From the NCBI RefSeq assembly GCF_055900595.2, contig NZ_CM148325.1: 64,000 nucleotides of DNA. One strand, given 5' to 3'. Under the pieces are notes generated by a model. That model saw nothing but the letters and a program-made list of their open reading frames with translations. It was not told the DNA's origin and did not search any database. Shown in pieces: positions 150-48,385 of this stretch. A program made the translations under genes and the position numbers. Position 1 is the first letter of the stretch, and every line of letters starts with the position of its first letter.

Positions 150-1002
150 AATTCCCTCCGTAGGTTTGGCTCAGCGCACAACCATCGGCCATGCCATACA
201 GCATGTCGCAGCCGGAACTGGAGCCAATATGTTTAATTTTTTCTATTGCCTGAGTTGCGTTCCCAGGTATGTCATAAATAATGTTATGAATAAAACGATG
301 AATATTTTCCCGGCAGCGTTGTTGTAATGCGGCTTCCAGCGTTATGGCACTTAATAACGTGGTATTATTTCTGCCGCGTTGCAGACCGAGATAAAATTCC
401 TCTTTGTATTTTTCCGCCGGATGCCCGGGAATAAATAAAATAAGCGCCAGACCTGTTAAATAATCGTCGGCTGATGGCGTAAGGCCAATCCCTAACCCCA
501 TCATACTGACGACCGCTGAGGCGATATTTTGTTTATCGTTTACTGCCTGAATAACTGCCCGTCGTTTAATATGTAATTCTTTATTTAACGCCTGATAAAA
601 CGGATTATCGCCACAATAATTAAACAGGGTTTCATTTTCCCCCAGGTGTTGATGAATAATGTCGTGCCACTGTTGCCAGGCGATAAGGTGAAAATTTTCA
701 GCGGTCATTTGCAAAGCGGGGGACAGCCAACGCTGGCAATGACTCATCTCTATATGAAGATGTTGACCAACCGTAATACCTTGATCATCAAACTGAACCT
801 TATCACCATGACGGAACAGACCATCAAAGTGAGTGAGTGCCAACCGACAACTGTTTGGCGCATTGTCGTACTCTTCACAAAGCAGTGTCAGCAACTGCTG
901 GCGAGCCGGGATTGCGATATTTACCGCTCTGGCAAAGACCTGTTCAACTTGTCCTTGCCCCCGCTGCGCCAGAAAATCAGCATCCGCAGTTAGCGCCCAC
1001 AC
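139..1002 (-). CDS. yahE: YahE-like conserved protein of unknown function
   Basis: 287-aa ORF; length and position next to the ankyrin-repeat yahD match K-12 yahE as recalled. Confidence 0.7.
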   Translation of the reverse strand: MWALTADADFLAQRGQGQVEQVFARAVNIAIPARQQLLTLLCEEYDNAPNSCRLALTHFDGLFRHGDKVQFDDQGITVGQHLHIEMSHCQRWLSPALQMTAENFHLIAWQQWHDIIHQHLGENETLFNYCGDNPFYQALNKELHIKRRAVIQAVNDKQNIASAVVSMMGLGIGLTPSADDYLTGLALILFIPGHPAEKYKEEFYLGLQRGRNNTTLLSAITLEAALQQRCRENIHRFIHNIIYDIPGNATQAIEKIKHIGSSSGCDMLYGMADGCALSQTYGGNYVS

Positions 1003-1041
1003 ACACCGTCTTTCTGGTGTGTTGATAGCAAACCTCCCGGT

Positions 1042-1647
1042 TTATGCGCCTGCGGCAATCAGCAACTGAGCAATCTCTTCAAAGCCCCGTTCCCGCGCCA
1101 GTTCCAGCGGCGTTTTGCCATATTTGTCGGTCAGATGCGGGCTGGCACCGTGCTCCAGCAATAACTGGACAATCGCCTGCTGTTTAATCCCGCCATCGTT
1201 AAGCACAATCGCTTCCAGTAGCGGCGTCCAGCCAACATGGTTGGTCTGGTTAACGTTAATATCCGTATGCGCCAAAAGCTCTTTTACAATACTTAAATGG
1301 CCTTTTTCACAGGCAGGCGTCAGGCCGACACCGCCGAAACGGGTTACACAATTAAGGTCTGGTTTAGCCGGTAAAATAATTCGTAGTAGCGTTAAATCAC
1401 CGTTCAGGCAACTCATTAAAAAAGGATTTAAACAGGTCTGGTCTTGTTTATTAATATCCGCACCGGCATCAATTAACGCCTGAACGCAAGCATATTGCTG
1501 ATATAAACTTGCCAGCGTAATTGCCGTTTTCCCCTGGCGATCGCAGGTATTTATATCTACCCCCAGAGCAAGGCAGGTTTTTACTTTATCGATATCACCC
1601 TGTTGTGCAGCCAATAAATAATCGGCAGGTAGATTTTTTATACTCAT
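1042..1647 (-). CDS. yahD: Ankyrin-repeat protein YahD
   Basis: ORF translation has repeated ankyrin motifs (GADIN, TPL..A, LLEHGA); likely start MSIKNLPADYLLAAQQGD gives 201 aa. Confidence 0.8.
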   Translation of the reverse strand: MSIKNLPADYLLAAQQGDIDKVKTCLALGVDINTCDRQGKTAITLASLYQQYACVQALIDAGADINKQDQTCLNPFLMSCLNGDLTLLRIILPAKPDLNCVTRFGGVGLTPACEKGHLSIVKELLAHTDINVNQTNHVGWTPLLEAIVLNDGGIKQQAIVQLLLEHGASPHLTDKYGKTPLELARERGFEEIAQLLIAAGA

Positions 1648-1904
1648 TAACATTCCCCTGTTTTTTGTGGCTGTTTTCGATGAATTGAGAATAGCAACGA
1701 TAATCTGATAAAAGAACCCGCTTAAATTTAATTCGCCGTATTTCGCCTTTTTGTTGAATGATGTTCAACAATCTTTTCGCAGTGTGCGGTAGTGCAATAT
1801 TTGTTTCTTTGACCCGATACCCTTTCACTCAATCAGGTTTTATTTCTCTATAGTCTGCACATGTAAGAGTAGCTTTCGTCCATGTCTAACCAGAGGGGAA
1901 CAAG

Positions 1905-2402
1905 ATGAACGGACTCACGGCAACGGGTATAACCGTCGGTATTTGTGCAGGGCTTTGGCAGTTAGTGTCTTCACATGTCGGGCTCTCTCAGGGATGGGAA
2001 TTATTAGGAACCATTGGCTTCGTCGCCTTTTGCAGTTTTTATGCCGCAGGCGGCGGTAAATCGGGGTTTATCAGAAGCCTGGCGGTTAATTATTCCGGGA
2101 TGGTGTGGGCGTTTTTCGCCGCGCTGGCTTCCGGTTGGCTGGCCTCGGTGAGTGGGCTTTCCGTGTTCTGGGCAAGCGTGATGACTACCGTGCCTTTCTC
2201 AGCTGTAGTGGTCTGGCAAGGGCGTTTCTGGTTACTGTCATTCATTCCCGGAGGCTTTCTCGGCATGACGCTGTTTTTTGCCAGCGGGATGAACTGGACG
2301 GTGACATTACTGGGTTTTCTGGCGGGTAACTGCGTGGGAATAATTTCAGAATATGGCGGACAAAAATTAAGCGAAGCGACGACTAAACGCGACGGGTATT
2401 AA
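1905..2402 (+). CDS. yahC: Inner-membrane protein YahC
   Basis: 165-aa ORF, strongly hydrophobic with several predicted TM helices; SD AGGGGAA upstream; position matches yahC. Confidence 0.75.
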   Translation: MNGLTATGITVGICAGLWQLVSSHVGLSQGWELLGTIGFVAFCSFYAAGGGKSGFIRSLAVNYSGMVWAFFAALASGWLASVSGLSVFWASVMTTVPFSAVVVWQGRFWLLSFIPGGFLGMTLFFASGMNWTVTLLGFLAGNCVGIISEYGGQKLSEATTKRDGY

Positions 2403-2493
2403 AAGTTATTCAAAAATGATTATCTATCTTTAACCGATACCTCTACAGTCATAGCTGGAGAAATTCATAGTAGATAATGGCGGGAATGGTTTA

Positions 2494-3426
2494 ATGAACT
2501 CAATTTTTACCGAAGAGAATCTGTTGGCATTTACTACCGCTGCGCGTTTTAGCAGCTTCAGTAAAGCGGCAGACGAGTTGGGTTTAACCACTTCCGCCAT
2601 TAGCTACACCATCAAGCGAATGGAAACAGGGCTGGATGTGGTGCTGTTCACTCGCAGTACCCGCAGCATTGAGTTAACGGAGTCCGGGCGTTATTTTTTC
2701 CGCAAAGCTACCGACCTGCTGAATGATTTTCACGCCATCAAACGCAGCATCGATACTATTTCGCAGGGCATAGAAGCGCGTGTGCGTATTTGTATTAATC
2801 AGCTGCTTTATACGCCCAAACACACCGCACGCTTATTACAGGTACTGAAAAAGCAATTTCCAACCTGCCAGATTACCGTCACCACCGAAGTGTATAATGG
2901 CGTCTGGGATGCGATTATTAATAATCAGGCGAATATCGCTATCGGCGCACCCGACACGCTGCTGGACGGCGGCGGCATTGATTACACGGAGATTGGCGCG
3001 ATTCGCTGGGCTTTTGCTATCGCCCCGGATCACCCGTTAGCCTTTGTGCCGGAACCCATCGCCGAAAGCCAACTGCGTCTCTATCCTAATATCATGGTGG
3101 AAGACACCGCGCATACGATTAATAAAAAAGTGGGCTGGTTGCTGCATGGGCAGGAGTCGATTCTGGTGCCAGATTTCAACACCAAATGTCAGTGCCAGAT
3201 TTTAGGCGAAGGAATTGGTTTTTTGCCGGATTACATGGTCCGTGAGGCGATGGCGCAATCCCTGCTGGTTACCCGACAAATCCATAATCCGCGCCAGGAT
3301 TCACGCATGTTACTGGCGACCCAGCACTCTGCCACCGGTCAGGTGACGCAGTGGATTAAAAAACAATTTTCGCCAAATGGCATATTAACGGGGATCTATC
3401 AGGATTTACTGCATCGGGAGAATTAA
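2494..3426 (+). CDS. yahB: LysR-family transcriptional regulator YahB
   Basis: 310 aa; N-terminal LysR HTH (FTTAARFSSFSKAADELGLTTSAISYTIKRME) plus substrate-binding domain. Confidence 0.85.
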   Translation: MNSIFTEENLLAFTTAARFSSFSKAADELGLTTSAISYTIKRMETGLDVVLFTRSTRSIELTESGRYFFRKATDLLNDFHAIKRSIDTISQGIEARVRICINQLLYTPKHTARLLQVLKKQFPTCQITVTTEVYNGVWDAIINNQANIAIGAPDTLLDGGGIDYTEIGAIRWAFAIAPDHPLAFVPEPIAESQLRLYPNIMVEDTAHTINKKVGWLLHGQESILVPDFNTKCQCQILGEGIGFLPDYMVREAMAQSLLVTRQIHNPRQDSRMLLATQHSATGQVTQWIKKQFSPNGILTGIYQDLLHREN

Positions 3427-3467
3427 TCGCTGCCAACCTCCCGATGCGCTGTGAATAGCGGTTTACA

Positions 3468-4556
3468 TCAACCACCTGCTTTCATTACCCATTCAGAGAT
3501 AAATTTATTACCCGGTACCGGCGGAGAGTACAAATAGCCCTGCAAAAAGTGTACGCCTTTACCAATCATTAAATCCGCCTGTTCCTGAGTTTCTACCCCT
3601 TCCGCCACAATACTCAGACCAGGCTTACGCGCCAGTTCGACAATATTGTCCACAATATGACCGGAGATTTCGTCAACACTCGCCATTTGCACAAACGACT
3701 TGTCAATTTTAATAAAATCGACCGGAAACGCCTGCAGATAACGATAGGTCGCATAACCCGTACCAAAGTCATCCAGCGCAAAGGTAATGTTGTGCTGATG
3801 AAGGCTGTCAAATATCGCTCTGGCTTCTGGCGTTACCGGAATGGGGTTGCGTTCCGTTAGCTCAAGAACCAGCTTGATTTTATCGTTACCTAATTTCTTG
3901 ACCAGGTTCAGACACTCTTTTTCAAATCCTGCGGCCAAAAAACATCCTGCCGAGACGTTGATTCCAATATGGAAATTATCCGGCAGCAAATGTTTTACTG
4001 GCATCAGAATATCCGCAGTCTGTTTCATCAGCTGGCGAGTCATTATGACAATAAGACCGGATGACTCCGCCAGAGGAATAAACTGATCCGGTGGGATAAT
4101 TCCCGTTTGCGGATGTTCCCAGCGGACAAGCACTTCACAGCCCGTCAGTACCCCAGTCTGCGCGCAGAAAACCGGTTGGATCCACGGTTTGAATTCGTGA
4201 TTTTCCAACGCCAGACTGATGGCTTCAGGCGTGACGATATGGTGATAGTGATTATCATTAATATATTTGTGACTATTATTACCCGTGGCGGATATGATCT
4301 CCGGATTGTACTGAAAGAAAATATCCCGCCAGAAAGTAATATCGCTCTGAATCCCCAGTTTCTCAAAGAGCTGTTTCTTTTGATGTGAAATGGTCTTTGC
4401 ACTGCGATTTCTGTACTGTGATATTTCTGTTACAGACATTCCCTGCATCAGCAGCTTGAGTAGCAGTCGTTCTTTCTCGGATACGCTACCAGGCAATGAC
4501 AAATGAACCGTTGTACCGAACTCTTGCAGAAAAACACGAAAATCACATGAATTCAT
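3468..4556 (-). CDS. pdeL: c-di-GMP phosphodiesterase PdeL (LuxR-type HTH + EAL domain)
   Basis: N-terminal LuxR-type HTH (LLKLLMQGMSVTEISQYRNRSAKTISHQKK) and C-terminal EAL domain; start taken at MNSCDFRVFLQEF (362 aa). Confidence 0.85.
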   Translation of the reverse strand: MNSCDFRVFLQEFGTTVHLSLPGSVSEKERLLLKLLMQGMSVTEISQYRNRSAKTISHQKKQLFEKLGIQSDITFWRDIFFQYNPEIISATGNNSHKYINDNHYHHIVTPEAISLALENHEFKPWIQPVFCAQTGVLTGCEVLVRWEHPQTGIIPPDQFIPLAESSGLIVIMTRQLMKQTADILMPVKHLLPDNFHIGINVSAGCFLAAGFEKECLNLVKKLGNDKIKLVLELTERNPIPVTPEARAIFDSLHQHNITFALDDFGTGYATYRYLQAFPVDFIKIDKSFVQMASVDEISGHIVDNIVELARKPGLSIVAEGVETQEQADLMIGKGVHFLQGYLYSPPVPGNKFISEWVMKAGG

Positions 4557-5431
4557 GAACACACCTTTTATCTTTTATCGCTGTTCAGTATGAGTGATTA
4601 CCTGTGGATTCCTGAGCACACATAAGGGGTAACCATAAACATTAGCGATGCCATACGTATAACATCCCACATCACTATCAAGAAGATTATCTTTACCTCT
4701 GATGCTCGCTCAAAAACAGTTACGCTAAATACCTTAAAAAGGTAATCACAAGTCAAACTCAGGAGATAATCACGCAAGAATGCAATATTAAAATTCAGAT
4801 ACTCATTTTTGGTAATAAAGAAGTAGTTGGACTATTTCGATATTTATAATTTCCCACTACGTATTGACGCCCATTCATGAGTAAAGGCGCATTATATGAA
4901 TTTAACAATCCAGATCAACTGAAAATACCTCAACCTCATAAACACATAGCGTCAACATTCAATGACATAATGAGTAAAGATGTTGGTTATGCATACACGT
5001 CATTACTCTATGCCAATCCCTTAACAACCTGCTTTTTAAGACTGAATCCATTCAGCAATAGATAGCCAACATTATAACAATGACAATAAAAACAATATTT
5101 AAAACAATCAATAAAATATCAGACACAAACAATTAAACCTTAAACAACAAACAGTTACATTGATTTTAGTTGATTTGCGCTATGCGTTCCCCATGAATAA
5201 AGCGTCATTTCAAATTAGCACCAATATTTACATTAAATAAGACTAAGCTTATTGAACATTCACAACAGTCCAAACGTAGTGTTTGGGCTTCAATAGTTCT
5301 TTTCTTTTTTATTATCTGTTGCCTGGCAATCATCAATCGATACTAAGGGCTTAACTGTACAGATATAACGTATCAAGAGGTAAGAGAAACCGCGCCATAT
5401 GCAGACATGGCGCGGTTTTATGCAATAACAA

Positions 5432-7465
5432 TCACGCGTCCGGGAACATCACGCTATGGCCCGGCGCTTCACGATGGAGATGGATAAAGTTAAGGTGCCG
5501 CTCGTACTGGTCGAGAATATCGGTGATCACCTGCTCTTTGCTGTAGTCCATCAGGTCGTTACCCTGGCTGCCTTCTAACAGGAAGGTTTCCAGCCGGTAG
5601 TAGGTCGATTTACCGCTACGTGCGCGGTAGGTAAAGCCCGGCACCGAATATTGCTGCGGCCAAATCTGATAGACAAAGTTTTGCTCTTCGCCCATATGCA
5701 CCAGCAAATCCAGATGCCCCAGATGTTCGCCCTCTTCCGGCGGCAGGCTTTTTAGCTCGACGTACGCACCGCGCAACCGCAGTTCCTGCGCCACTTCTTC
5801 CATTGCCGGATAACAGACGGTTTCCATCATCTGTTTGGTGTAACGCGTGCCCGGATAATTCATCAGGCGCGAGAGACGTTTTTTCCAGCTCAGGCGATCC
5901 TGAAGCCCCAGCGGTCGCGGTGCGGTATCACGGTTGGCACTTTCACGGCGGTAATCTTCTACCTTCAGAGATTTATACAATCCCGCCATCACGAAGAAAA
6001 TCACAAAGCTGAACGGCAGCCCCATGATTACCGTGGTGTTTTGCAGCGCGGATATCCCGTTGGTCATTAACATACCGAGCGTCAGCAGACCAATGGCAAC
6101 CGACCAGAAGACACGCAGCCAGCCCGGCGCGTCGCTGTTGATATCTTTAAGCTGCGAGGTGAAATTCCCCAGCACCAGCGCGCCGGAGTCCGCCGAGGTC
6201 ACATAAAACAGCAGGCCAGTAATGGTGGCCACGGAGGCGCTAAAGGTAAATGCCGGATACTGCGCCAGCAGGCTGTAGAAGCCGCGCTCCGGATGGACCA
6301 TCGCTTCCTCGGCAAATGCCGCGCCGCCGTGGATGATTTCATACAGCGCGCTATTGCCGAATACCGAGAGCCATAACAGCGTGAAGGTAAACGGAATAAT
6401 CAACGTCCCCAGTACGAACTGGCGAATGGTGCGCCCACGCGAGATACGCGCCAGGAACAGGCCAACAAACGGCGACCAGGCTACCCACCATGCCCAGAAA
6501 AAGAGCGTCCAGTTATTCATCCACTCAACCGGGCGGTCAAAGGCGAAACTGTTGAGCGTCATGCCCATAAAGCGATTCACATAGTCGCCGACGTTCAGCA
6601 CCAGCGCATTGAGCAGGAACGAGGTGTCGCCCATAAACAGCACGAACAGAATCAGCCCCAGCGCCAGTGCGACGTTGAGTTCAGACAATACGCGAATGCC
6701 TTTGTCGACACCAGATGTCACCGAGATAGTCGCGATGATTACCGACAGCGCGATCAGCACCGCTTTCGCCGCCATTGAATCCGGGATATCAAACAGTACG
6801 CTCAGGCCATAGTTAAGCTGCACCACGCCAATGCCGAGCGTGGTGGCAATCCCGAAGATGGTGCCGATCACCGCTGCAATATCCACCGAGTGACCAATCG
6901 GCCCGTTAATCCGTTTACCGAAAATCGGATACAGCGCCGAGCGGATGGTGAGCGGCAAATTATAACGATAGCTGAAGTATCCGAGCGCCATGCCCATCAG
7001 CGCATACATCGACCAGCCCGTTAAGCCGTAGTGAAACAGCGTCCAGACCATCGCCTGACGCGCGGCCTCAATCGTCTGACCCGCGCCTTCCGGCGGCTGC
7101 ATATACTGCGTTACCGGTTCGGCTACGGAGAAGAACATCAGGTCGATACCGATCCCGGCGGCAAACAGCATCGCCGCCCAGCTCAGCAGGCTGAACTCAG
7201 GCTTAGACTGCTCGGGCCCGAGTTTCACCGAACCAAAGCGCGAACAGGCAATGCAGACCACAAAGACAATATAGAGCGTTGCCGCTAACAGATAGTACCA
7301 ACCAAAAGTTTTAGAAACCCAGTCCAGCGTGCGGCCAATCCACAGAGCCGAGAAGTCGCGAAACAGGATCGTTGTCAGGGAAAACAACAAAATCAGTCCG
7401 GCGGAAGTATAAAACACCACCGGATTGATTTTGTCCTTTTCCCTGCTGTGCGAAAGGTCTGTCAT
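5432..7465 (-). CDS. betT: High-affinity choline transporter BetT (BCCT family)
   Basis: 677 aa; polytopic membrane protein with a BCCT-like tryptophan-rich core and hydrophilic C-terminal tail; divergent from betI. Confidence 0.9.
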   Translation of the reverse strand: MTDLSHSREKDKINPVVFYTSAGLILLFSLTTILFRDFSALWIGRTLDWVSKTFGWYYLLAATLYIVFVVCIACSRFGSVKLGPEQSKPEFSLLSWAAMLFAAGIGIDLMFFSVAEPVTQYMQPPEGAGQTIEAARQAMVWTLFHYGLTGWSMYALMGMALGYFSYRYNLPLTIRSALYPIFGKRINGPIGHSVDIAAVIGTIFGIATTLGIGVVQLNYGLSVLFDIPDSMAAKAVLIALSVIIATISVTSGVDKGIRVLSELNVALALGLILFVLFMGDTSFLLNALVLNVGDYVNRFMGMTLNSFAFDRPVEWMNNWTLFFWAWWVAWSPFVGLFLARISRGRTIRQFVLGTLIIPFTFTLLWLSVFGNSALYEIIHGGAAFAEEAMVHPERGFYSLLAQYPAFTFSASVATITGLLFYVTSADSGALVLGNFTSQLKDINSDAPGWLRVFWSVAIGLLTLGMLMTNGISALQNTTVIMGLPFSFVIFFVMAGLYKSLKVEDYRRESANRDTAPRPLGLQDRLSWKKRLSRLMNYPGTRYTKQMMETVCYPAMEEVAQELRLRGAYVELKSLPPEEGEHLGHLDLLVHMGEEQNFVYQIWPQQYSVPGFTYRARSGKSTYYRLETFLLEGSQGNDLMDYSKEQVITDILDQYERHLNFIHLHREAPGHSVMFPDA

Positions 7466-7593
7466 CCAGTATCCCCACTGTTATTGTTACCATTTAAAAT
7501 CAAATTAGTAACAATTAAGACACATTTTATATTGAACGTCCAATCAATAACGGCTTTAATAGATTAACAACGCTGATGAATGGAGTGGCAAAA

Positions 7594-8181
7594 ATGCCCA
7601 AATTGGGGATGCAGTCGATCCGGCGCAGACAACTGATCGACGCCACGCTGGAAGCAATAAATGAAGTAGGTATGCACGATGCGACGATCGCGCAGATCGC
7701 CCGCCGGGCGGGCGTTTCCACCGGGATCATTAGCCACTATTTCAAAGATAAAAATGGTCTGCTGGAAGCAACCATGCGTGATATCACCAGCCAGCTGCGT
7801 GACGCGGTCTTGAACCGCTTACACGCGCTACCGGATGGCAGCCCTGAGCAGCGATTACAGGCGATTGTTGACGGAAATTTCGATGAGACTCAGGTCAGTA
7901 ATGCTGCGATGAAAGCCTGGCTGGCGTTTTGGGCCAGCAGTATGCATCAGCCGATGCTTTACCGTTTGCAGCAGGTGAGCAGCCGCCGCTTGTTGTCGAA
8001 TCTGGTGAGCGAATTTCACCGCGAGTTACCGCGCCAACAGGCGCAGGAAGCGGGCTACGGACTTGCCGCGCTGATTGACGGATTATGGCTGCGCGCGGCA
8101 CTGAGCGGCAAACCGCTGGATAAACCTCTCGCACACTCGCTTACCCGTCACTTTATTACTCAGCATTTACCCACCGATTAA
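7594..8181 (+). CDS. betI: TetR-family repressor BetI
   Basis: Start [26 protein letters not shown]...; TetR HTH; immediately upstream of betB. Confidence 0.9.
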
Positions 8182-8194
8182 CCGAGGAGACGTG

Positions 8195-9667
8195 ATGTCC
8201 CGAATGGCAGAACAGCAGCTTTATATACATGGTGGTTATACCTCCGCCACCAGCGGTCGCACCTTCGAGACCATTAACCCGGCCAACGGTAACGTGCTGG
8301 CGACCGTGCAGGCCGCCGGGCGTGAGGATGTCGATCGCGCCGTGAAGAGTGCCCAACAAGGGCAAAAAATCTGGGCGGCGATGACCGCCATGGAACGCTC
8401 GCGCATTCTGCGTCGAGCCGTTGATATTCTGCGCGAATGCAATGACGAACTCGCTAAACTGGAAACCCTCGACACCGGGAAGGCGTATTCAGAAACCTCA
8501 ACCGTCGATATCGTTACCGGCGCGGACGTACTGGAGTACTACGCCGGGCTGATCCCGGCGCTGGAAGGCAGCCAGATCCCGCTACGCGAAACGTCGTTTG
8601 TTTATACCCGCCGTGAACCGCTGGGCGTGGTCGCAGGAATTGGCGCATGGAACTACCCGATTCAGATTGCTTTGTGGAAATCCGCTCCGGCACTGGCCGC
8701 AGGCAACGCGATGATATTCAAACCGAGCGAAGTTACCCCGCTTACCGCGTTAAAGCTGGCTGAAATCTACAGCGAAGCGGGCCTGCCGGACGGCGTATTT
8801 AACGTGCTGCCGGGCGTAGGTGCGGAAACCGGGCAGTATCTGACCGAGCATCCGGGCATTGCCAAAGTGTCATTTACCGGCGGTGTCGCCAGCGGCAAAA
8901 AAGTGATGGCTAACTCGGCGGCTTCCTCCCTGAAAGAAGCGACCATGGAGCTGGGCGGTAAATCACCGCTGATCGTTTTCGACGATGCGGATCTCGATCT
9001 CGCCGCTGATATCGCCATGATGGCGAACTTCTTCAGCTCCGGCCAAGTGTGTACCAACGGCACCCGCGTCTTCGTTCCGGCGAAATGCAAAGCCGCATTT
9101 GAACAAAAGATTCTGGCGCGCGTTGAACGCATTCGCGCGGGCGACGTTTTCGATCCGCAAACCAACTTTGGCCCGCTGGTCAGCTTCCCGCATCGCGATA
9201 ACGTGCTGCGCTATATCGCCAAAGGTAAAGAGGAAGGTGCACGCGTGCTCTGCGGCGGCGATGTGCTGAAGGGTGATGGCTTCGATAACGGCGCATGGGT
9301 TGCTCCGACCGTATTCACCGATTGCCGCGACGAAATGACTATCGTGCGCGAAGAGATCTTCGGCCCAGTGATGTCGCTCCTCACGTATGAGTCTGAAGAC
9401 GAAGTGATTCGCCGCGCCAATGATACCGACTACGGTCTGGCGGCGGGTATCGTCACGGCGGATCTGAACCGCGCGCATCGCGTCATTCATCAGCTGGAAG
9501 CCGGCATTTGCTGGATCAACACCTGGGGAGAATCCCCGGCGGAGATGCCCGTTGGCGGTTACAAACACTCCGGCATTGGCCGCGAGAACGGCGTGATGAC
9601 GCTCCAGAGTTATACCCAAGTGAAGTCCATCCAGGTTGAGATGGCTAAATTCCAGTCCATATTCTAA
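8195..9667 (+). CDS. betB: Betaine-aldehyde dehydrogenase BetB
   Basis: 490 aa; ALDH family with catalytic Cys region ([12 protein letters not shown]) and ELGGKSP motif. Confidence 0.9.
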
Positions 9668-9680
9668 CCAGGAGGTTTAT

Positions 9681-11369
9681 TTGCAATTTGACTACATCAT
9701 TATTGGCGCCGGCTCTGCCGGCAACGTCCTCGCGACACGTCTGACTGAAGATCCGAACACTACCGTGCTGCTGCTTGAAGCGGGCGGCCCGGACTATCGC
9801 TTTGACTTCCGTACCCAAATGCCCGCTGCGCTGGCGTTCCCGCTACAGGGTAAACGCTATAACTGGGCGTATGAGACCGAGCCGGAACCGTTTATGAACC
9901 ACCGCCGCATGGAGTGCGGACGCGGTAAGGGGCTTGGTGGATCATCACTGATCAACGGCATGTGTTACATCCGTGGTAACGCGCTGGATCTCGATAACTG
10001 GGCGAAAGAACCCGGTCTGGAGAACTGGAGCTACCTCGACTGCCTGCCCTACTACCGCAAGGCCGAGACGCGCGATGTGGGCGAGAACGACTACCACGGC
10101 GGTGATGGCCCGGTAAGCGTGACCACCTCAAAACCGGGTGTCAATCCGCTGTTTGAAGCAATGATTGAGGCGGGCGTGCAGGCCGGTTATCCGCGCACGG
10201 ACGACCTTAACGGGTATCAGCAGGAAGGTTTCGGCCCGATGGACCGCACCGTCACGCCACAGGGCCGTCGCGCCAGCACCGCGAGGGGTTATCTCGATCA
10301 GGCCAAATCGCGCCCGAACCTGACGATTCGTACTCACGCTATGACCGATCACATCATTTTTGACGGCAAACGCGCGGTGGGCGTCGAGTGGCTGGAAGGC
10401 GACAGCACCATTCCGACCCGCGCGGCGGCGAATAAAGAAGTGCTGTTATGTGCAGGCGCGATTGCCTCACCACAAATCCTGCAACGCTCCGGCGTCGGCA
10501 ACGCTGAACTGCTGGCGGAGTTTGATATTCCGCTGGTGCATGATTTGCCCGGCGTGGGCGAAAATCTTCAGGATCATCTGGAGATGTACCTGCAATACGA
10601 GTGCAAAGAACCGGTTTCCCTCTACCCTGCCCTGCAGTGGTGGAATCAGCCGAAAATCGGTGCGGAGTGGCTGTTTGGCGGCACCGGCGTGGGTGCCAGC
10701 AACCACTTTGAAGCAGGCGGATTTATTCGCAGCCGTGAGGAATTTGCGTGGCCGAATATTCAGTACCATTTCCTGCCAGTGGCGATTAACTATAACGGCT
10801 CGAACGCAGTGAAAGAGCACGGCTTCCAGTGCCATGTCGGATCGATGCGCTCGCCAAGCCGTGGGCATGTGCGGATTAAATCCCGCGACCCGCACCAGCA
10901 TCCGGCGATTCTGTTTAACTACATGTCGCACGAACAGGACTGGCAGGAGTTCCGCGACGCGATTCGCATCACCCGCGAGATCATGCATCAACCGGCGCTG
11001 GATCAATACCGTGGCCGCGAAATCAGCCCCGGCGCGGAATGCCAGACAGATGAGCAGCTCGATGAGTTCGTGCGTAATCACGCCGAAACCGCCTTCCACC
11101 CATGCGGTACGTGCAAAATGGGGTACGACGAGATGTCCGTTGTGGATGGCGAAGGCCGCGTGCACGGGCTGGAAGGATTACGCGTAGTCGATGCGTCAAT
11201 TATGCCGCAGATTATCACCGGCAATCTGAACGCCACGACCATTATGATTGGTGAGAAAATGGCGGATATGATTCGCGGACGAGAAGCGTTGCCGAAGAGT
11301 CTGGCGGCGTATTTTGTGGCGAATGGGATGCCAGTAAGAGCGAAAAAACTGAATCGCGATTTGAACTAA
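9681..11369 (+). CDS. betA: Choline dehydrogenase BetA (GMC oxidoreductase); apparent TTG start
   Basis: GMC flavoprotein with N-terminal FAD fold ([18 protein letters not shown]); AGGAGG SD at 9670-9675 then TTG at 9681 encoding (M)QFDYIII. Confidence 0.85.
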
Positions 11370-11660
11370 CGCAGGAACTTATAAGCTTGAGAGTTACCGT
11401 TCTACGATAAGGACCGAATCCTTATATAAAAAACATAGGTAACACTCATGCTTCATATCCAGTATTCATGATGCTGGTTTTTTGCTGATGTTTTTACCAG
11501 AATATTCCTGATACAGACTATTAATTCAAGCTTATCTGCGACAGATTTCATTTTCTGGATATATTATGAGTGACAAATCAAACAGGATATCGATCTGATT
11601 GAAATTTTATTTTATCTGAAGAAAAAGATTCGTGTTATTCTGTTTATTATAGCTGTTTGT

Positions 11661-12076
11661 ATGACAATGGTGCTATTATTTCTGTACATCAATAAAGACA
11701 ATATAAAGCTGAGTTACAGCCTAAAAATAAACCACACAACATCAGGCATACTTGTAAGCTGTGATAGCAATAATAACTTTGCCTGTCAGACCACAATTAC
11801 TGAAGATGTTATTCAGCGAATTACGAGTTTTTTAGACCAGTACTAATGCTAAAAATTGCCTTGTCAAAAAAATGGTAGATGAATACCAACAAAACTCTGG
11901 GCAGTAATAAACAGCATTCTGATAGAGAGTGCCTGTATAAAGCTGAAGTGACAATGACCGGGAAGGGAGCCCGTCTTCAGGAATGGATTCCTGTCTTTTT
12001 CACTGTAAATATCCTGGCATTATTAATGTCAGGATATTTACAGAAGTGCAGCATAACCATGACGGAACGGGGTTAA
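11661..12076 (+). pseudogene. Possible degraded ykgH-like membrane-protein gene (short ORFs in three frames)
   Basis: AT-rich ~780 bp gap between betA and ykgG has only 61-70-aa ORFs in different frames, where K-12 (recalled) has ykgH. Speculative. Confidence 0.2.
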
Positions 12077-12149
12077 GTCAGGTTGTCCTTAACGCTATTC
12101 ACAACCTCGTATACCGCCTTCAGGTTTATGTCCAGACTTCATATCTCTC

Positions 12150-23000: not shown

Positions 23001-24326
23001 ATTGCCTTTGTTATCGTAGGCAACTGCTGAAATCGCATAATAATTGTCTTTGCCTGGACGGTAAGCCGGGAGCGTTACTTGCCACTGACTCCCCTGCCCG
23101 GTAATTTTGCCACCTTCAGCCAGTAATGATGGTGCTTCCCACTGCACATTTTTCAGACCGTGAGTCGCTTTGCTGACCACCAGCCCCAGGGAAACAGTCT
23201 GCCCGCCCTTGCCTTCAATACGCTCAGGCAGAGCAATACGGATCACTTCTGATTTGCGGTACTCAAGAATGATATTGTTATTACGCTCAACCAGGTCATA
23301 GCGGCTGCCTGCCAGCATTCGACGCTCGCGAATGCTGTCTGTATCGAGTTGTTTTTCCAGAGGTTCGCCAATTCGGTAGTTAACTTCCAGGCCAAAGCGA
23401 GTGTCATTCTCACCACTCTTGCCCTGCTTATGCCCGGCGCTCAGTGTCAGAAGAGGCACTGGTGTATAGGTTACCTCGGCAGAAATAGCATGCGGGTCTT
23501 TCTGGCGTTTATCTTTACCAAACAGCCCGACTTCATCGCCATAATACTGCTCATACATCAGGCTTGCGCCAAGCTGCGGCCAGGCAGGTAAATAGCCCTC
23601 AGCACGAATATCCCAGCCATTCGCCGGGCGTTCCTGATAATCCTCAACATCCGGTGATTTTTTCCAGCCAGAAGCCCGGATATAACCATTGGCGCTCAGT
23701 TTCAAATAATCACGCCAGTATTCCGCACCAACACCAATGCGGGTATGACTACGGGATAAATCATGATCGATAAAAGTATTCACCCCCGCCATCCAGTCAT
23801 TTCCTGAAAAATGACGCCAGCCAAAACCAATATTTGACTGAGTACGATCGTCGGTACGATGTATTGCCCCCTGAGTGAACAACATATTTGTCGGCGTGTC
23901 ATAAATCGGATAAAGCATTTCCAGCGAAGAATCCTTCAGCGAGAAATCTTTATCGACATTCAGTTTGACGCGCGCTGTACCATATTTCCCGAGCCACTCC
24001 TGTATTTCCTGGTTAGCTTTAGCGGTGGCCATTCCGGTAATAAAATTACGTGTCGCATCGCTATCTGGCTGACTGCTTAAAAATGTCCCGGCATTCGCGG
24101 CAAGCGACGCGACATTTTTCTCCACGTTATTATCAGCAGTTACCGTAGTATTTTCCATGCTCAATCGTGGCTGAACCGCATGCTGCGCATGTGCCGCCAT
24201 TACTGGGGTAAAAGTGACTGCGAGTGGGAAAAGAACCTGAACAGAGATATTTGCCCACGCCACGCAGCGGGCCAGAACTGAATAACGAAATCGTGGTTGT
24301 TTATGACCTGTTTTATAACGTGACAT
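20073..24326 (-). CDS. eaeH: Intimin/invasin-like outer-membrane adhesin, full length (EaeH/FdeC type)
   Basis: 1417-aa uninterrupted ORF: N-terminal beta-barrel-like region then many ~90-aa Ig-like repeats (T/V/A-rich). Confidence 0.85.
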   Translation of the reverse strand: MSRYKTGHKQPRFRYSVLARCVAWANISVQVLFPLAVTFTPVMAAHAQHAVQPRLSMENTTVTADNNVEKNVASLAANAGTFLSSQPDSDATRNFITGMATAKANQEIQEWLGKYGTARVKLNVDKDFSLKDSSLEMLYPIYDTPTNMLFTQGAIHRTDDRTQSNIGFGWRHFSGNDWMAGVNTFIDHDLSRSHTRIGVGAEYWRDYLKLSANGYIRASGWKKSPDVEDYQERPANGWDIRAEGYLPAWPQLGASLMYEQYYGDEVGLFGKDKRQKDPHAISAEVTYTPVPLLTLSAGHKQGKSGENDTRFGLEVNYRIGEPLEKQLDTDSIRERRMLAGSRYDLVERNNNIILEYRKSEVIRIALPERIEGKGGQTVSLGLVVSKATHGLKNVQWEAPSLLAEGGKITGQGSQWQVTLPAYRPGKDNYYAISAVAYDNKGNASKRVQTEVVITGAGMSADRTALTLDGQSRIQMLANGNEQKPLVLSLRDAEGQPVTGMKDQIKTELSFKPAGNIVTRTLKATKSQAKPTLGEFTETEAGVYQSVFTTGTQSGEATITVSVDGMSKTVTAELRATMMDVANSTLSANEPSGDVVADGQQAYTLTLTAVDSEGNPVTGEASRLRLVPQDTNGVTVGAISEIKPGVYSATVSSTRAGNVVVRAFSEQYQLGTLQQTLKFVAGPLDAAHSSITLNPDKPVVGGTLTAIWTAKDANDNPVTGLNPDAPSLSGAAAAGSTASGWTNNGDGTWTAQITLGSTAGELEVMPKLNGQDAAENAAKVTVVADALSSGQSTVSVAADRVKAGESTTVTLVAKDAHGNAISGLSLSASLTGTASEGATVSSWTEKGDGSYVATLTTGGKTGELRVMPLFNGQPAATEAAQLTVIAGEMSSANSTLVADNKTPTVKTTTELTFTVKDAYGNPVTGLKPDAPVFSGAASTGSERPSAGSWTEQSNGVYVATLTLGSAAGQLSVMPRVNGQNAVAQPLVLNVAGDASQAEIRDMTVKVDNQLANGQSANQVTLTVVDSYGNPLQGQEVTLTLPQGVTSKTGNTVTTNAAGKADIELISTVAGELEIAAAVKNSQKTVTVKFNADASTGQANLQVDTAVQKVANGKDAFTLTATVEDKNGNPVPGTLVTFNLPRGVKPLTGDNVWVKANDEGKAELQVVSVTAGTYEITASAGNSQPSNTQTITFVADKATATVSSIEVIGNYALADGKAKQTYKVTVTDANKNLVKDSEVTLTASPASLNLEPNGTTTTNEQGQAIFTATTTVAATYTLTAQVSQNNGQVSTKTAEAKFVADDKNAQLTASSNVPSLVADGKSTAKLEVTLMSANNPVGGNMWVDIQTPEGVTEKDYQFLPSKNDHFVSGKITRTFSTSKPGVYTFTFNALTYGGYEMKPVTVTITAVEANTATGEEAMK

Positions 24327-24603
24327 TGAGATAATTTCCTGATGAACGAATTAACGAACATAGGCAGACACAAATAATGGCGTCTGCTTGTCAGAAAAAC
24401 CGGGATTTCCCGGTTTCCTTTTCCGCAGAAAAGGAAATACCTTTATGTAAGAAAGTACACCGCCACCTAATATATCCAGTGCCTGTAGCCACTCATCAGG
24501 TGGTTGGGCGCGGGATTATATTTTTATTTATGGGTGAAAATTTAGCTTTTTGTGCAAGTCATTAAATAGATACCTATGTTATATTTCTTACTCTGCGGAC
24601 AGT

Positions 24604-24619
24604 GAATAATTCATTATTC
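24604..24619. promoter_or_regulatory. AT-rich palindromic operator-like site (GAATAAT-TC-ATTATTC) between divergent eaeH and AKR genes
   Basis: Perfect 7-bp inverted repeat with 2-bp spacer plus a third TGAATAAT half-site 6 bp downstream; resembles Fur-type hexamer repeats. Regulator unknown. Confidence 0.3.
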
Positions 24620-24875
24620 AGAGTGAATAATAATGACCTGCTTTTAATTTACCACGATTGGAAATACGTCGAAGTAGGTATATACCCCAGGATAAACCGA
24701 TATATTTTTTATGGATATTCATTTTCCTTCGTCGGACTGTAAATTCCGGGGATATCGAACTTGCACGACTAATCTCAACCCTCAAACAGATTTATGAATT
24801 TTGTTCATAACCCCTGACAAATCCTGCCGTCTAATCGAGCTTTTCCCTTTACGTTATGCTTCTCATGAACGATAA

Positions 24876-27751
<2,876 letters not shown>

Positions 27752-43671: not shown

Positions 43672-46398
43672 CTATTCCCATTCGCTAACATCTTTCATGC
43701 CACTGAGGGTAGCTACAATCCCGGCCCTTGTCAGTTTCACGAATTCTTCAGCCCCAACGGCATCACGAATTGCTTTCATGGCAATTTTATTGGCCGAAAA
43801 TCGTTTCTCTGCTGCGGCGATCGCTGCTGGTGATGCCCCTGCGCGCACTGCTTTTGTAGCTTCCTGAACGGCTTTCTCTATCGCATATCGACCACTTCTT
43901 GTCGCCCCAATCTTAGCCACAGCATTTCTTAGCGCGCCACCAGCAACCAAACCACTAATCGAACCAATTACACCACCGCCAAAGCCTCCAGCGATCGCAC
44001 CTGACTGTTGAACACCGTTCATAATCACGCCGACGATCTTTGGAAGGCCTGAATCGAGCGTTTTGAGAGCCTCAGTTGTTCTTCCCGTGCGCTCTACGTA
44101 TCGCTGCGGTCTGGTACTGGCTTTAGCGAGTACACCGAACTCTTTCATCATTCTACCGAGATCTGGCGCATGACGACTGATGGCGTTTACATTCTGCTGG
44201 GTCATGAGCTTGGCAAAATACTGGATACCTGACTCTTCACCGATTCCTCCCTTCTCTCCCTGCGCCACAGCATGCTGAAGAATAGATGCTATTGCAGGTT
44301 GGCGTTCTGCTTCCGGCAGCGCGGAGATAAGACGGTGAAAAGCTCCCGTTCCAGTGTTTGCGGATGCCTTAAGCGTATCGGCACCTTTTCTTACCATAGC
44401 GTCTGATGCGAGATCTCGACCAAAAACAGATTCGGCATTTTGTTTGGCGATAATGTAACTTTTAGAGAGATCGTTAGCTTTCTGCCATTCTGTGAGGAAG
44501 TTTCCTTTTTCAGCCATGATGCGCATGTCATCAGTGATAGCTCTGCGCATTTCTCCGGCAATCCGGGCGGCATTGGCCTTACCTGCCCGGGTGTTTGCTT
44601 GTTCAGCATCAGCAAACTTAGCACGCCATGCCTTCATCCCGTCGAAGGTTATGCCGCCACCTTGGTTGTTGGCAGCCTGAAACTGTTTCATCTCCGGGCT
44701 GAGTGGAACATTGGCTGCTTTTTCTGCTTGGACGACAGCCATTCCATTACTCATTTTCATCCTTTCGCGTGGCATCGTGCTTCGCAGTTCTGCCCATGCC
44801 ATATTCTCTGCTGTTTTCATATCACTGAGGCTCGCGATGATGCGCTCTTTAATTGCTGCGCTTTTTTCTGATGCGCTTCCAGACTCAGCACCGAAATCAG
44901 ACAACTGCTTATTCAACTTTGAGGATATTTCATTGAAGGCCGTAAGGTGAGCATCCTGAACATTCCCAGGAGTTGATGCCAGAACACCTTCTGCTTGGGC
45001 AATTCCACGACTACCTGAGCGCATTCCAGGCGTCAGGGTGTTGATATTAATACCAGTGATTTTCGCCGCCTTAGCGACATCATCTCTGACGTTTGATGCC
45101 TGCGATGCGATATGCTCTCGGCCTACGGCAGAACGCGCTGCTTTCGATACATCATTGGCGGTTTCCAGAGTATTTGCTGCCCCTAACACATGGCCTGATT
45201 GATTTGTATTACTCCGCAATACATCTCGCATTACGTCACTGGCTGTCTGTCCGCTCTTTATTAAAGCGCGTGCTCCTAGCGATCCTGCTAGGCCAATACC
45301 TGTCTCTTTTGCTAGGTCTTCTGGGCTGATCTGCCCGTTCTTTTGGGCGTTCACCAATGTACCTGGCAGGTTTTCTGCCAACATACTAGCCACCTTTGTG
45401 GCCGCACGTTCAGCACGTGGAGCGTTGGCAACTGAAGAAGCTGCGGTAGCTGCCTTTCCTGCACCTAATCCTGTAATAAGGTAAGGTGCTAGCTGCTCAC
45501 CAGCCTGCGCGTATGGATCTGTAGGTTGGTCTACTGGGCGAAAGACAGGTGATATGGGCGTGTATGTGCCATCACCCACACCAAGCTTCTGAGCTGCCCA
45601 TGCTCCGGCTGATTGCGCCGCATTGACTACCCCCACGCCTGCGTCCATTACATCAAACGGTATATTAGCAATCCCTCTGGCCATCTGCTCTGGCGCAGCT
45701 TTCAGTCCTGGCGAAAGATATTCCATCTCAGGATTAAGGTTAGACTTGGCTACTTGCTGCTGCGGTTCCCCGGCATTTTCATCGGCGAGAAACTGAGCTC
45801 TTTTCTGCTCCCATGAACTGGCTGTTGGTAGTCCTGCTTCTATGTTCTTAAATTGCTGACGTTTTGCTTCCCATGCAGAAATATCTCCCACCTGAGAGAT
45901 TTCTTTATCAAGCTCTGAGTAGTCAGGCTGCTGAAGATTGCGATGTTGACTGGTTTGTGCAAACTGCAAGATTTCACTGTCATCAGGGATTATTCCGGCA
46001 TCTGCAAATTTACTTACGTAATTAGCCGTTTCATCTGGCAGTGTAGATTTACCGTTTCTGACGGCATTAATACGAGCATAGCCAGAATTATACCCAGCCA
46101 ATGCCATACCTATATCACCAAATCGCTTCATTCCTTTATTGAGATGGTTTGCTGCGATATCCATTTGCTTTTCAAATGGCAGTGAGCGCGGATCTGTTCC
46201 ACGATAACCAGCATCACTCATTACTGAGGGCATCAGTTGAGCAAATCCTCTAGCTCCTTTCGGTGACTCGGCACTTCCGTTACCACTAGATTCATTGCCA
46301 ACTAATGTTTCCATCGTCCCTGATGGGAAACCATATTTTTCATCGAGATGACGGGAATAGGCTTTCTGTTTTTCTGTCAGTTGTGCCATCATTGCCAT
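43672..46398 (-). CDS. Large protein with N-terminal lytic transglycosylase (SLT) domain; podovirus gp16-like internal virion/ejection protein
   Basis: 908 aa; SLT motifs (GARGFAQLMPSV ... ALAGYNSGYARI) then long helical region and C-terminal hydrophobic segment. Confidence 0.65.
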   Translation of the reverse strand: MAMMAQLTEKQKAYSRHLDEKYGFPSGTMETLVGNESSGNGSAESPKGARGFAQLMPSVMSDAGYRGTDPRSLPFEKQMDIAANHLNKGMKRFGDIGMALAGYNSGYARINAVRNGKSTLPDETANYVSKFADAGIIPDDSEILQFAQTSQHRNLQQPDYSELDKEISQVGDISAWEAKRQQFKNIEAGLPTASSWEQKRAQFLADENAGEPQQQVAKSNLNPEMEYLSPGLKAAPEQMARGIANIPFDVMDAGVGVVNAAQSAGAWAAQKLGVGDGTYTPISPVFRPVDQPTDPYAQAGEQLAPYLITGLGAGKAATAASSVANAPRAERAATKVASMLAENLPGTLVNAQKNGQISPEDLAKETGIGLAGSLGARALIKSGQTASDVMRDVLRSNTNQSGHVLGAANTLETANDVSKAARSAVGREHIASQASNVRDDVAKAAKITGININTLTPGMRSGSRGIAQAEGVLASTPGNVQDAHLTAFNEISSKLNKQLSDFGAESGSASEKSAAIKERIIASLSDMKTAENMAWAELRSTMPRERMKMSNGMAVVQAEKAANVPLSPEMKQFQAANNQGGGITFDGMKAWRAKFADAEQANTRAGKANAARIAGEMRRAITDDMRIMAEKGNFLTEWQKANDLSKSYIIAKQNAESVFGRDLASDAMVRKGADTLKASANTGTGAFHRLISALPEAERQPAIASILQHAVAQGEKGGIGEESGIQYFAKLMTQQNVNAISRHAPDLGRMMKEFGVLAKASTRPQRYVERTGRTTEALKTLDSGLPKIVGVIMNGVQQSGAIAGGFGGGVIGSISGLVAGGALRNAVAKIGATRSGRYAIEKAVQEATKAVRAGASPAAIAAAEKRFSANKIAMKAIRDAVGAEEFVKLTRAGIVATLSGMKDVSEWE

Positions 46399-47708
46399 CC
46401 CTTAAGTTTTGCCTGATAGTAACTTTCCGGCAGATAGCCATGTGCGGTCACATAATCCTTAACCAGTGAAGGATCCTGCAACAGCATTTTGGTATCAGTT
46501 TCTTCGTCCTTAGATTTGGTTACAGGAATACCGAGCCCGGCAATCTGTCGTTTCTGCATTCGAATAATTACGTCCTGCGCTTTATTCAACTCTCGCAAAA
46601 ATGCCTCATTGCTGGTTGCTGACTTAATGCCATTTTGAGATTGCATAAGGGCAGCCCTTTCCCCTTCGGTTGGGTTAGAGCCAAAAGTCCCTTTGAGGCT
46701 AGGCAGAATAACCTTTAGGTTGTATTCATCAGCTTTGGCGCGTAGGCTTCGTGTGTCTTCTGCTACATCAGGAAGGAATCCAAACCCCAGCGTCAGGGGG
46801 TTATAGTTCTGCGAGCGGGTAACGGCCGAAGGATGTTTCCCTACAATTCCCGCCAGTTCATGACCCACTTCAAGCGCAGAGTTCAAGGAGTCGATGTTAC
46901 CTGCAACAGTATTAATTTTATCGTTCATCTTCTCCACTTTCGCCTGCTGTATCTTGCTCAGTTCAGCATTGAGCTTGTCTCTCTCGATGTCATTTTGAGC
47001 ACGTCCAAGTCGTGCTTTCAGAACCATTTCTCTCGTGCGTAGTTGGTTATCGGATAGGACTTTGAACTGCTCCATATCGAGACGTCGATTACCCTGTTCC
47101 GCATTAACCTGAGCATTATATGCGGATGTATCTGCGTTCTGCTGTGCAATGCTCTGCCCTTGCTGCTTCTCTTGAACACTAAAGTAACTATTTGGATCAG
47201 CATGGAGGTGGATGAGGTCAGTGATTCTGTTGAATTCCTGTGGGTCATTCTGCCAAGACTGATAAACCTCTTCAGCAGGAAGACCAAATCGCTGTAATAC
47301 TGGATTTGCCTGCTGAATGGCCTTCTGCATGGTCAGTGGATCTCCAGTTTGTGACGCAAGACGCAGATTCATGGCAGCGTCAGCGGTCTGTCGATTTTGC
47401 TCAGCATCAATGAATCCCATCTGTTTTTGAGAATCAGCCATAAACTGGGGATACTGGGCCATTAACTTCTGCACGCCAACACGATCATTATTAGCTACCG
47501 CACTACCCAACCGTGCCTGATATTCTTTTAACTGCTGGGAAATTTGCGCCTGCTGATTAATCTCAGCAACGCCTCTTAGCCCCTGTAGCGCCATTAAACC
47601 TACGTTTGGCTGCTGCTGATACTGCACAGGCTGAGGAACGGAAGAACGAGGAGCATTATCATTTTGCGGTGCCATGCTAGGCAGCCCGCCAAGTTGCCAT
47701 GTCGCCAT
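46389..47708 (-). CDS. Gln-rich coiled-coil protein (439 aa); gp15-like by size and position
   Basis: Overlaps neighbours by 1-10 bp; no enzymatic motif. Confidence 0.5.
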   Translation of the reverse strand: MATWQLGGLPSMAPQNDNAPRSSVPQPVQYQQQPNVGLMALQGLRGVAEINQQAQISQQLKEYQARLGSAVANNDRVGVQKLMAQYPQFMADSQKQMGFIDAEQNRQTADAAMNLRLASQTGDPLTMQKAIQQANPVLQRFGLPAEEVYQSWQNDPQEFNRITDLIHLHADPNSYFSVQEKQQGQSIAQQNADTSAYNAQVNAEQGNRRLDMEQFKVLSDNQLRTREMVLKARLGRAQNDIERDKLNAELSKIQQAKVEKMNDKINTVAGNIDSLNSALEVGHELAGIVGKHPSAVTRSQNYNPLTLGFGFLPDVAEDTRSLRAKADEYNLKVILPSLKGTFGSNPTEGERAALMQSQNGIKSATSNEAFLRELNKAQDVIIRMQKRQIAGLGIPVTKSKDEETDTKMLLQDPSLVKDYVTAHGYLPESYYQAKLKGWQ

Positions 47709-48385
47709 TAGAATCCAAGCCCCCCAACAAGACCAATAAGCCCACCACCAATAGCGCCGGCCGCAGTTCCTATTCCAGGAACAACGGAACCAAGTTGCGC
47801 ACCCGCTAAAGCGCCTGATGCTGCCCCACCAATACCACGCGCAAGACTGGATGGCTGCTGCGCCTGACCTGCACGAATAGCGCCAAGCCCCTGCAAGAGT
47901 TGTCCGGTATTATTGGCGTAGTTTTGCCCTGCCGTTGCCTGCCCTGATGCCGCATTCATCCCGACATTTAGCAGGTTTCCATAATTTTGCATTTGCCCAC
48001 TGAGCCAATTGTTATAAAGCATGGGCGCAATGGAAGATAACTGGTTACTGGTAGCTGTTGAGCCAAGCCCCCCGGTAGCTTCTGCTGAGACAAGGTTCTG
48101 ATAACGGGCCTGATCTGCCTGTGTTTTATATAAACCAGAACCAAAGAAATCATTCGCGGCTTTATTCTGCCCTTCCAGAGTCATCAGTCCTTGTAGTTGT
48201 TGTAAAGCAGGCAATCCGACTTCTGCATACGGCTTGAGATTATTCATCACCGTATTCCACTGCTCGCGCTGCAAATCAATTGCCTGCTGCTGGGCCTTCG
48301 CCTGAGCTTTAGAGGCACCACCATCACCGCCTTTTTCGTATACGGCACGATTGAGATGTTTATGAGCTATGTGGGTAATTAACAT
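47708..48385 (-). CDS. Protein with C-terminal glycine-zipper membrane segment (225 aa); gp14-like
   Basis: C-terminus GIGGAASGALAGAQLGSVVPGIGTAAGAIGGGLIGLVGGLGF. Confidence 0.5.
   Translation of the reverse strand: MLITHIAHKHLNRAVYEKGGDGGASKAQAKAQQQAIDLQREQWNTVMNNLKPYAEVGLPALQQLQGLMTLEGQNKAANDFFGSGLYKTQADQARYQNLVSAEATGGLGSTATSNQLSSIAPMLYNNWLSGQMQNYGNLLNVGMNAASGQATAGQNYANNTGQLLQGLGAIRAGQAQQPSSLARGIGGAASGALAGAQLGSVVPGIGTAAGAIGGGLIGLVGGLGF

Follow-up and report, generated by a model that had tools for sequence, protein, structure and literature searches.

A 780-bp gap separates betA, which ends at 11369, from the minus-strand gene ykgG, which ends at 12150, in a 64,000-nt stretch of DNA from contig NZ_CM148325.1 (NCBI RefSeq assembly GCF_055900595.2), referred to below as the window. 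We are close to certain that this gap (positions 11370–12149) contains the Escherichia coli gene ykgH, inactivated by two small frameshifts and a 324-bp internal deletion. In K-12-type strains the same locus is 1,106 bp long and includes the 669-bp ykgH, which encodes a protein of 222 aa. In total 327 bp of the gene have been lost from the window and 342 of its 669 bp are left. An earlier reading of the window made from its letters alone (the sequence-only reading) gave a membrane-protein gene of about 220 aa at this place in K-12, and both MG1655 and a K-12-like strain indeed have ykgH there. The same reading left a choice between a decayed gene and a strain-specific non-coding region. The former was confirmed by translated similarity (tblastn E 3e-46), and the latter, understood as unrelated non-coding DNA, is wrong.

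A multiple alignment of the window with four intact alleles (K-12-like CIT, 042, GF43 and STN0717-11) demonstrated that the sequences are collinear apart from three gaps of 1, 2 and 324 nt. The remnant consists of the following features.

11566–11907, plus strand: ykgH pseudogene (DNA alignments, tblastn and the RefSeq pseudogene mark in identical alleles)
11566–11568 and 11905–11907, plus strand: ancestral ykgH start codon ATG and ancestral stop codon TAA (alignment with intact alleles)
11572/11573, plus strand: 1-nt deletion in codon 3, GAA to GA- (alignment gap, column 506)
11574–11831, plus strand: 5' remnant, YkgH residues 4–89, no longer in the frame of the start codon (tblastn)
11824/11825, plus strand: 2-nt deletion (alignment gap, columns 759–760)
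11825–11855, plus strand: 31-bp patch with 11 substitutions, abutting the 324-bp deletion
11855/11856, plus strand: junction of the 324-bp deletion, approximately codons 98–206 lost (alignment gap, columns 792–1115)
11856–11907, plus strand: 3' remnant, YkgH residues 207–222 (CLVKKMVDEYQQNSGQ) and the stop codon (tblastn and alignment)

Translation from the old ATG yields MSDKSNRISI followed by TGA at 11596–11598, so that the base lost from codon 3 would end protein synthesis after 10 codons. With the K-12 and 042 proteins as tblastn queries, YkgH residues 4–89 matched 11574–11831 in frame 3 (89.5–90.7% identity, E 3e-46 to 4e-47), and residues 207–222 matched 11857–11904 in frame 1 (100% identity, E 1e-5). 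No tblastn match to residues 90–206 and no second copy of ykgH were found in the window. The decayed-gene interpretation is supported because translated similarity to YkgH was found for both of these segments, in two frames, when the alignment that the sequence-only reading had proposed was made. That reading expected frameshifts as the lesions; the two small ones are present, and the main lesion is the internal deletion. The 5' remnant spans transmembrane helix 1 and the first portion of the periplasmic domain. The 324-bp deletion takes out the long helix together with the remainder of that domain, as well as the greater part of transmembrane helix 2. With two more bases and the 324-bp block gone, the bulk of the periplasmic domain and of the second membrane helix would no longer be encoded and no YkgH protein would be made. 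The loss of YkgH function is inferred from these lesions with high confidence.

Outside the gaps the DNA identity to K-12 is about 91%. All 52 nt of the 3' remnant are identical to the last 52 bp of the coding sequence in the K-12-like allele. In the 31-bp patch (GAGTTTTTTAGACCAGTACTAATGCTAAAAA) the identity to the intact alleles is 64.5%, compared to 91–93% in the remaining part of the 5' remnant, and the patch contains stop codons both in the ancestral frame and in the frame of the open reading frame (ORF) that runs into it. The position between betA and ykgG, the orientation on the betA strand, and the nucleotide and translated similarity identify the remnant as the ykgH orthologue, in the form of a pseudogene; a functional ykgH would be read without interruption through about 222 codons, beginning at the conserved ATG, and no such frame is present. 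Compared to ykgH of K-12 MG1655 (b0310, ‘uncharacterized protein YkgH’), the window has the same site, orientation, promoter hexamers, start position, stop codon, 3' untranslated region (3'UTR) and terminator, whereas the frame is broken at codon 3, 2 nt are lost further downstream, and codons 98–206, approximately, are deleted.

The annotation of the neighboring genes was transferred from the RefSeq features of a 99.7%-identical locus with an offset of 8369.

9681–11369, plus strand: betA, choline dehydrogenase, 562 aa (transferred RefSeq annotation and ORF list)
12150–12845, minus strand: ykgG, LutC family, the convergent downstream neighbor (transferred RefSeq annotation and ORF list)

The gene order betB-betA-[remnant]-ykgG-ykgF-ykgE is the same as in K-12 and 042. 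The C-terminus of BetA here reads ...AKKLNRDLN (562 aa; 11340–11369), as in 042 and most strains checked. In K-12, betA has one A fewer in an A-run and the stop codon comes six codons earlier, giving 556 aa.

The distribution of the allele was studied in 5,426 complete E. coli genomes. Megablast found the 780-bp region in 5,181 of them, and in almost all the match consists of two pieces spread over 1,102–1,106 bp annotated as ‘ykgH: protein YkgH’. A 90-bp probe covering the deletion junction had a full match in exactly 15 genomes (0.28%); in every other matching genome only the right half of the probe matched. The 15 carriers come from dogs, cattle, goat, pig, food and humans in Asia, Africa, Europe and North America. 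When eight other carriers were aligned, all eight had the three indels and the 31-bp patch. The carrier alleles share the junction and are 96.9–99.7% identical over 780 bp. In the carriers, the positions equivalent to 11577–11831 bear a RefSeq annotation as an incomplete pseudogene, which neither gives the name ykgH nor covers the 3' remnant. We regard the feature as an ordinary pseudogene, specific to a lineage and already flagged in the reference annotation, and not as a new element. By their 3'UTR and spacer, the carriers fall into two downstream haplotypes, 042-like and K-12-like; therefore recombination occurred beside the deletion after it had arisen. An exact junction search in one genome per species returned no matches, and thus provides no evidence that the allele originated in another named species.

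The gene is retained to at least 80% in about 4,892 of the 5,426 genomes. Other losses include an independent, larger internal deletion in strain SX4, which spares the 3' end and the spacer, an IS1 insertion in strain MB50, and many truncated, frameshifted and internally deleted variants in protein collections. These alleles have lost the same gene as the window, but their lesions and breakpoints differ, and they represent separate events.

Two further explanations of the gap may be set against these data. The low GC content, the absence of a long ORF and an identity to K-12 of just about 91% are what one would expect if strain-specific non-coding DNA unrelated to ykgH had replaced the gene; the collinearity with the ykgH locus over the whole length, three gaps aside, and the translated similarity refute a replacement, leaving it next to no chance. 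Fragmentation of a single sequence by sequencing or assembly errors is just as hard to credit. Errors often take the form of single-base indels in A/T runs, and the 780-bp region carries two singleton substitutions absent from its closest relatives. However, the identical 1-, 2- and 324-nt lesions and the same junction recur in the 15 independently sequenced complete genomes. For the pseudogene itself, nothing contradictory was found. All three deletions occur together in every carrier aligned, and the transcript or its 3'UTR may have a residual non-coding function.

The GC content of the gap is 0.31–0.41, compared to 0.50–0.62 in the flanking genes. As the sequence-only reading had described, this AT-rich DNA contains only three ORFs of 61–70 aa in different frames; the ORF list gives the following ORFs of at least 60 aa, one per reading frame.

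11661–11846, plus strand: 61-aa ORF, the tail of the old ykgH frame
11879–12076, plus strand: 65-aa ORF, not a ykgH fragment, open in intact-ykgH strains as well
11983–12195, plus strand: 70-aa ORF, not a ykgH fragment, overlapping the 3' end of ykgG (on the opposite strand) by 46 nt

Shuffling with dinucleotide content preserved (1,000 replicates) gave 0.63 such ORFs on average, and three were reached in 1.6% of the shuffles. The count of three is modestly above chance, and one of the three is a real gene remnant. Only the 61-aa ORF is a piece of the decayed gene. It begins at the Met33 codon, midway along transmembrane helix 1, and direct reading of the sequence upstream of it showed no recognizable Shine-Dalgarno sequence. 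In the old ykgH frame, 12 alleles differ by 21 synonymous and 16 non-synonymous substitutions, with approximately 21% synonymous expected at random, a footprint of past purifying selection. One carrier, 2020CK-00188, has an extra 1-nt deletion that breaks the 61-aa ORF too, showing that decay has gone on.

The 65- and 70-aa ORFs, which show no such footprint, occupy the last ykgH codons, the 3'UTR and the spacer before ykgG, and intact-ykgH strains have the same sequence there. The 65-aa ORF has 7 synonymous and 16 non-synonymous differences (30% versus about 22% at random), the same count as in an alternative frame, and the 70-aa ORF, for which the counts are 3 and 22, carries frameshifts in three alleles and has no start in another. 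None of the three ORFs has a meaningful match in Pfam or NCBIfam. We conclude that the 65- and 70-aa ORFs are in all likelihood chance ORFs in a conserved spacer and not genes. A genuine small-protein gene, new or overlooked, among the three could be argued from the rarity of three such ORFs in the shuffles, from the equal length of the 65-aa ORF in all 13 alleles compared, and from its annotation as the hypothetical protein WP_064735138.1 in one RefSeq genome (E200086). Given the substitution patterns, the lesions of the 70-aa ORF, the absence of family matches, and the start of the 61-aa ORF inside a membrane helix, without a ribosome-binding signal and in a frame broken in one carrier, such a gene is very improbable. 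The substitution pattern suggests that the WP_064735138.1 annotation is an over-call.

As to the origin of the deletion, the 31-bp patch sequence occurs solely in the 15 deletion-carrying genomes among the 5,426 searched. No intact ykgH allele with the patch was found in this set, and a pre-existing divergent allele is thus unsupported as its source within E. coli. The patch may have arisen by error-prone repair or come from a divergent donor. Some of its changes look conservative by codon. Deletion mediated by direct repeats (TGTCAAGAA and TGTCAAAAA, near both ends) was considered and rejected, as TTGCCT is still present upstream of the right-hand copy.

The region from about 500 to 12600 (yahE to ykgG, including betT and betIBA) is 4–8% diverged from K-12, and locally 13–15% at the 3' end of betA; over 5400–12600, the stretch compared, the divergence from 042 is similar to that from K-12. 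Further downstream, ykgF, ykgE, rclR and rclA (12600–18000) are 98–99.5% identical. The region 500–12600 is a haplotype of core genes that is long, divergent and mosaic. At 100-bp resolution, the identity to 042 rises from 87–92% to 99% exactly at the deletion junction, where the haplotype switches from 6–13% diverged to 99% identical. The deletion might be a product of homology-facilitated illegitimate recombination during the import of divergent donor DNA. The coincidence of the junction and the identity switch proves nothing, however, because the region is mosaic in general.

The gap also retains several non-coding signals.

11459–11487, plus strand: betA terminator-like hairpin and T-run (CCAGTATTCATGATGCTGG TTTTTTGCTG), kept (consensus scan and fold)
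11538–11565, plus strand: promoter-like hexamers GCGACA-16-TATATT directly 5' of the old ykgH start, kept (scan)
11908–12002, plus strand: ykgH 3'UTR, the counterpart of the putative small RNA (sRNA) ‘ykgH 3'UTR’ of K-12 (terminator scan)
12003–12043, no strand assigned: 41-bp near-perfect palindrome with a 19-bp stem (CTGTAAATATCCTGGCATTA/TAATGTCAGGATATTTACAG; inverted-repeat search and fold)

The fold of 11440–11490 has an energy of −11.8 kcal/mol (z −2.1), and the betA hairpin is invariant relative to strains with intact ykgH. The pair GCGACA/TATATT is listed for ykgH, with H-NS, in a table from genomic SELEX (systematic evolution of ligands by exponential enrichment; PMC3946193), and ykgH is reported to be H-NS-bound. 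A Rho-independent terminator of the kind expected for a 3'UTR-derived sRNA is present at 11978–12000, formed by the hairpin 11978–11993 and the T-run 11994–12000 (CAGGAATGGATTCCTG, then TCTTTTT). With these flanking signals intact, any transcription would produce a non-coding transcript about 327 nt shorter than the original one, ending at the kept terminator and carrying the 3'UTR.

The 3'UTR of K-12 ykgH was proposed to give rise to an Hfq-bound 3'UTR-derived sRNA, with chimeras in RIL-seq, in which interacting RNAs are ligated and sequenced, and a target motif (PMC5145812). It has a high sRNA score and a pile-up of RNA-seq reads, but northern blotting with two probes was negative (PMC8175672). 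The segment probed in K-12 maps to approximately 11952–11990 of the window, as located by the reverse complements of the probes with 2–3 mismatches (PMC8175672). Sequence homologous to this RNA, complete with probed segment and terminator, lies at about 11908–12002 of the window, but the parent messenger RNA here would be 327 nt shorter. The 3'UTR is 95.7–98.9% identical to that of strains with intact alleles; compared to K-12, it has 4 substitutions in 93 nt, three of them in or beside the terminator hairpin. A scan of 11200–12300 with Rfam 15 (E ≤1) yielded no family, the best scores being 16–22 bits versus cut-offs of 50–117 (E 0.16–0.9). In predicted folds the 3'UTR did not exceed shuffled sequences in stability (z −0.5 to +1.2), so structure lends no support to the sRNA. 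The sequence of the candidate RNA has outlived the decay of the gene, and survival alone is not evidence of function; the chance that the RNA bearing the 3'UTR has a maintained function is low.

An extension of the pseudogene interpretation, which would add to it rather than replace it, is that the locus, although its coding sequence is dead, persists as a module for a non-coding RNA (promoter, final 52 bp of the coding sequence, and the 3'UTR with its terminator) that still yields the ‘ykgH 3'UTR’ sRNA, its 3' part being under selection. This would agree with the sRNA score and the read pile-up in K-12 (PMC8175672), with the hairpin and T-run at 11978–12000, and with the deletion ending 52 bp before the stop codon, the interval 11856–12002 being 96–100% identical to intact alleles as opposed to 91–93% in the 5' remnant; the independent SX4 deletion likewise spares the 3' part. 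On the other hand, two deletions sparing 150 bp are weak evidence, the better conservation of the 3' part is equally well explained by regional mosaic recombination, the RNA escaped detection with both northern probes in K-12 (PMC8175672), and neither Rfam nor the folds favor it. We consider such a module unlikely, though not negligibly so. That the locus is in transition from coding for a protein to making non-coding RNA alone, with the promoter, the 52-bp end of the coding sequence, the 3'UTR and the 41-bp palindrome kept by selection while the coding body was deleted, so that the remnant would still supply a regulatory RNA, seems more doubtful.

The palindrome lies between the convergent ykgH and ykgG and has a predicted fold of −21.3 kcal/mol (z −7.2). 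It is kept in all 13 alleles compared, with one stem shortened, and the changes fall mostly at the loop end and in the outermost part of the stem. No U-run follows it on either strand. It may be a bidirectional terminator, a stabilizer of RNA 3' ends or a protein-binding site.

The intact YkgH is a protein with two transmembrane helices, encoded by an AT-rich gene found almost solely in Escherichia. A word-indexed protein search with YkgH retrieved only Escherichia sequences, and an exhaustive HMMER search added a handful of full-length homologues with 21–29% identity, in which a Cys pair is conserved, one Trp is invariant and one Tyr nearly so. A separate search for related loci with K-12 YkgH gave only two contigs, of 256 and 272 bp, in the actinobacterial assemblies of Nocardioides malaquae Y6 and Amycolatopsis orientalis KCTC 9412; both code for YkgH fragments 100% identical to E. 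coli and are almost certainly E. coli contamination. The intact K-12-type gene (locus L002, 3196–3864) was used for structure modeling; the alignment-based model was retained and a single-sequence AlphaFold model was discarded (predicted local distance difference test score, pLDDT, 51). The model suggests, at the level of architecture only, that intact YkgH could be a miniature polysaccharide co-polymerase-like protein of the Wzz/KpsE type. The polysaccharide co-polymerases (Wzz/WzzE/Wzc/KpsE) are the nearest family for the ancestral YkgH and not for the remnant. YkgH is about 100 residues shorter than WzzB, and E. coli ykgH lies outside any polysaccharide cluster, between bet and lut-like genes. 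The Pfam Wzz model PF02706 scored 18.5 bits on intact YkgH, below the cut-off of 25.5 (E 0.0025, residues 8–44 only); for GNVR the E-value was 0.56, and the NCBIfam WzzB and CapC-type scores were far under their cut-offs. We did not assign YkgH to the Wzz family because its sequence falls short of the family threshold and no functional or gene-context link exists. None of the papers listed by a literature search for a connection between ykgH and Wzz or co-polymerases mentions ykgH. A distant homologue (P0063) directly follows a Wzy_C/PglL-like gene and a gene for a ScsC/DsbA-like thioredoxin (L016, 5062–8663), in a gene group located downstream of a fimbrial operon, and this neighborhood may hint at a glycan-related role. 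Another distant homologue adjoins an autotransporter gene.

For annotation purposes, ‘ykgH pseudogene’ is the appropriate label for the feature, and none of the three short ORFs should be entered as a gene. It is one more case of ykgH as a dispensable gene repeatedly lost in E. coli. The ykgH locus has been treated as dispensable and transcriptionally silenced (PMC8497626), and its dispensability agrees with the choice of this locus for neutral integration and with the reported silencing by H-NS. The Wzz-like interpretation of the very small YkgH family offers a testable hypothesis for an uncharacterized K-12 protein, and natural deletion alleles that spare the 3'UTR provide ready material for deciding whether the ykgH 3'UTR sRNA is real and independently expressed.

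Elsewhere in the window, an intact 1,417-aa ORF occupies 20073–24326, where K-12 has the eaeH pseudogene interrupted by IS3; the K-12 match near this ORF is limited to 23451–24876. The ecp/mat operon, the pao genes and CP4-6 of K-12 are without counterpart in the window. Collinearity with K-12 stops on the ykgL side at 33119, and P22-like prophage genes follow at approximately 33100–58922, adjoining tRNA-Thr(CGT) at 58847–58922 and proA/proB. The prophage includes the following genes.

43672–48385: P22-like ejection proteins, gp7-, gp20- and gp16/SLT-like
49603–52362: prophage primase
54322–55389: prophage Ash
57467–58681: prophage integrase
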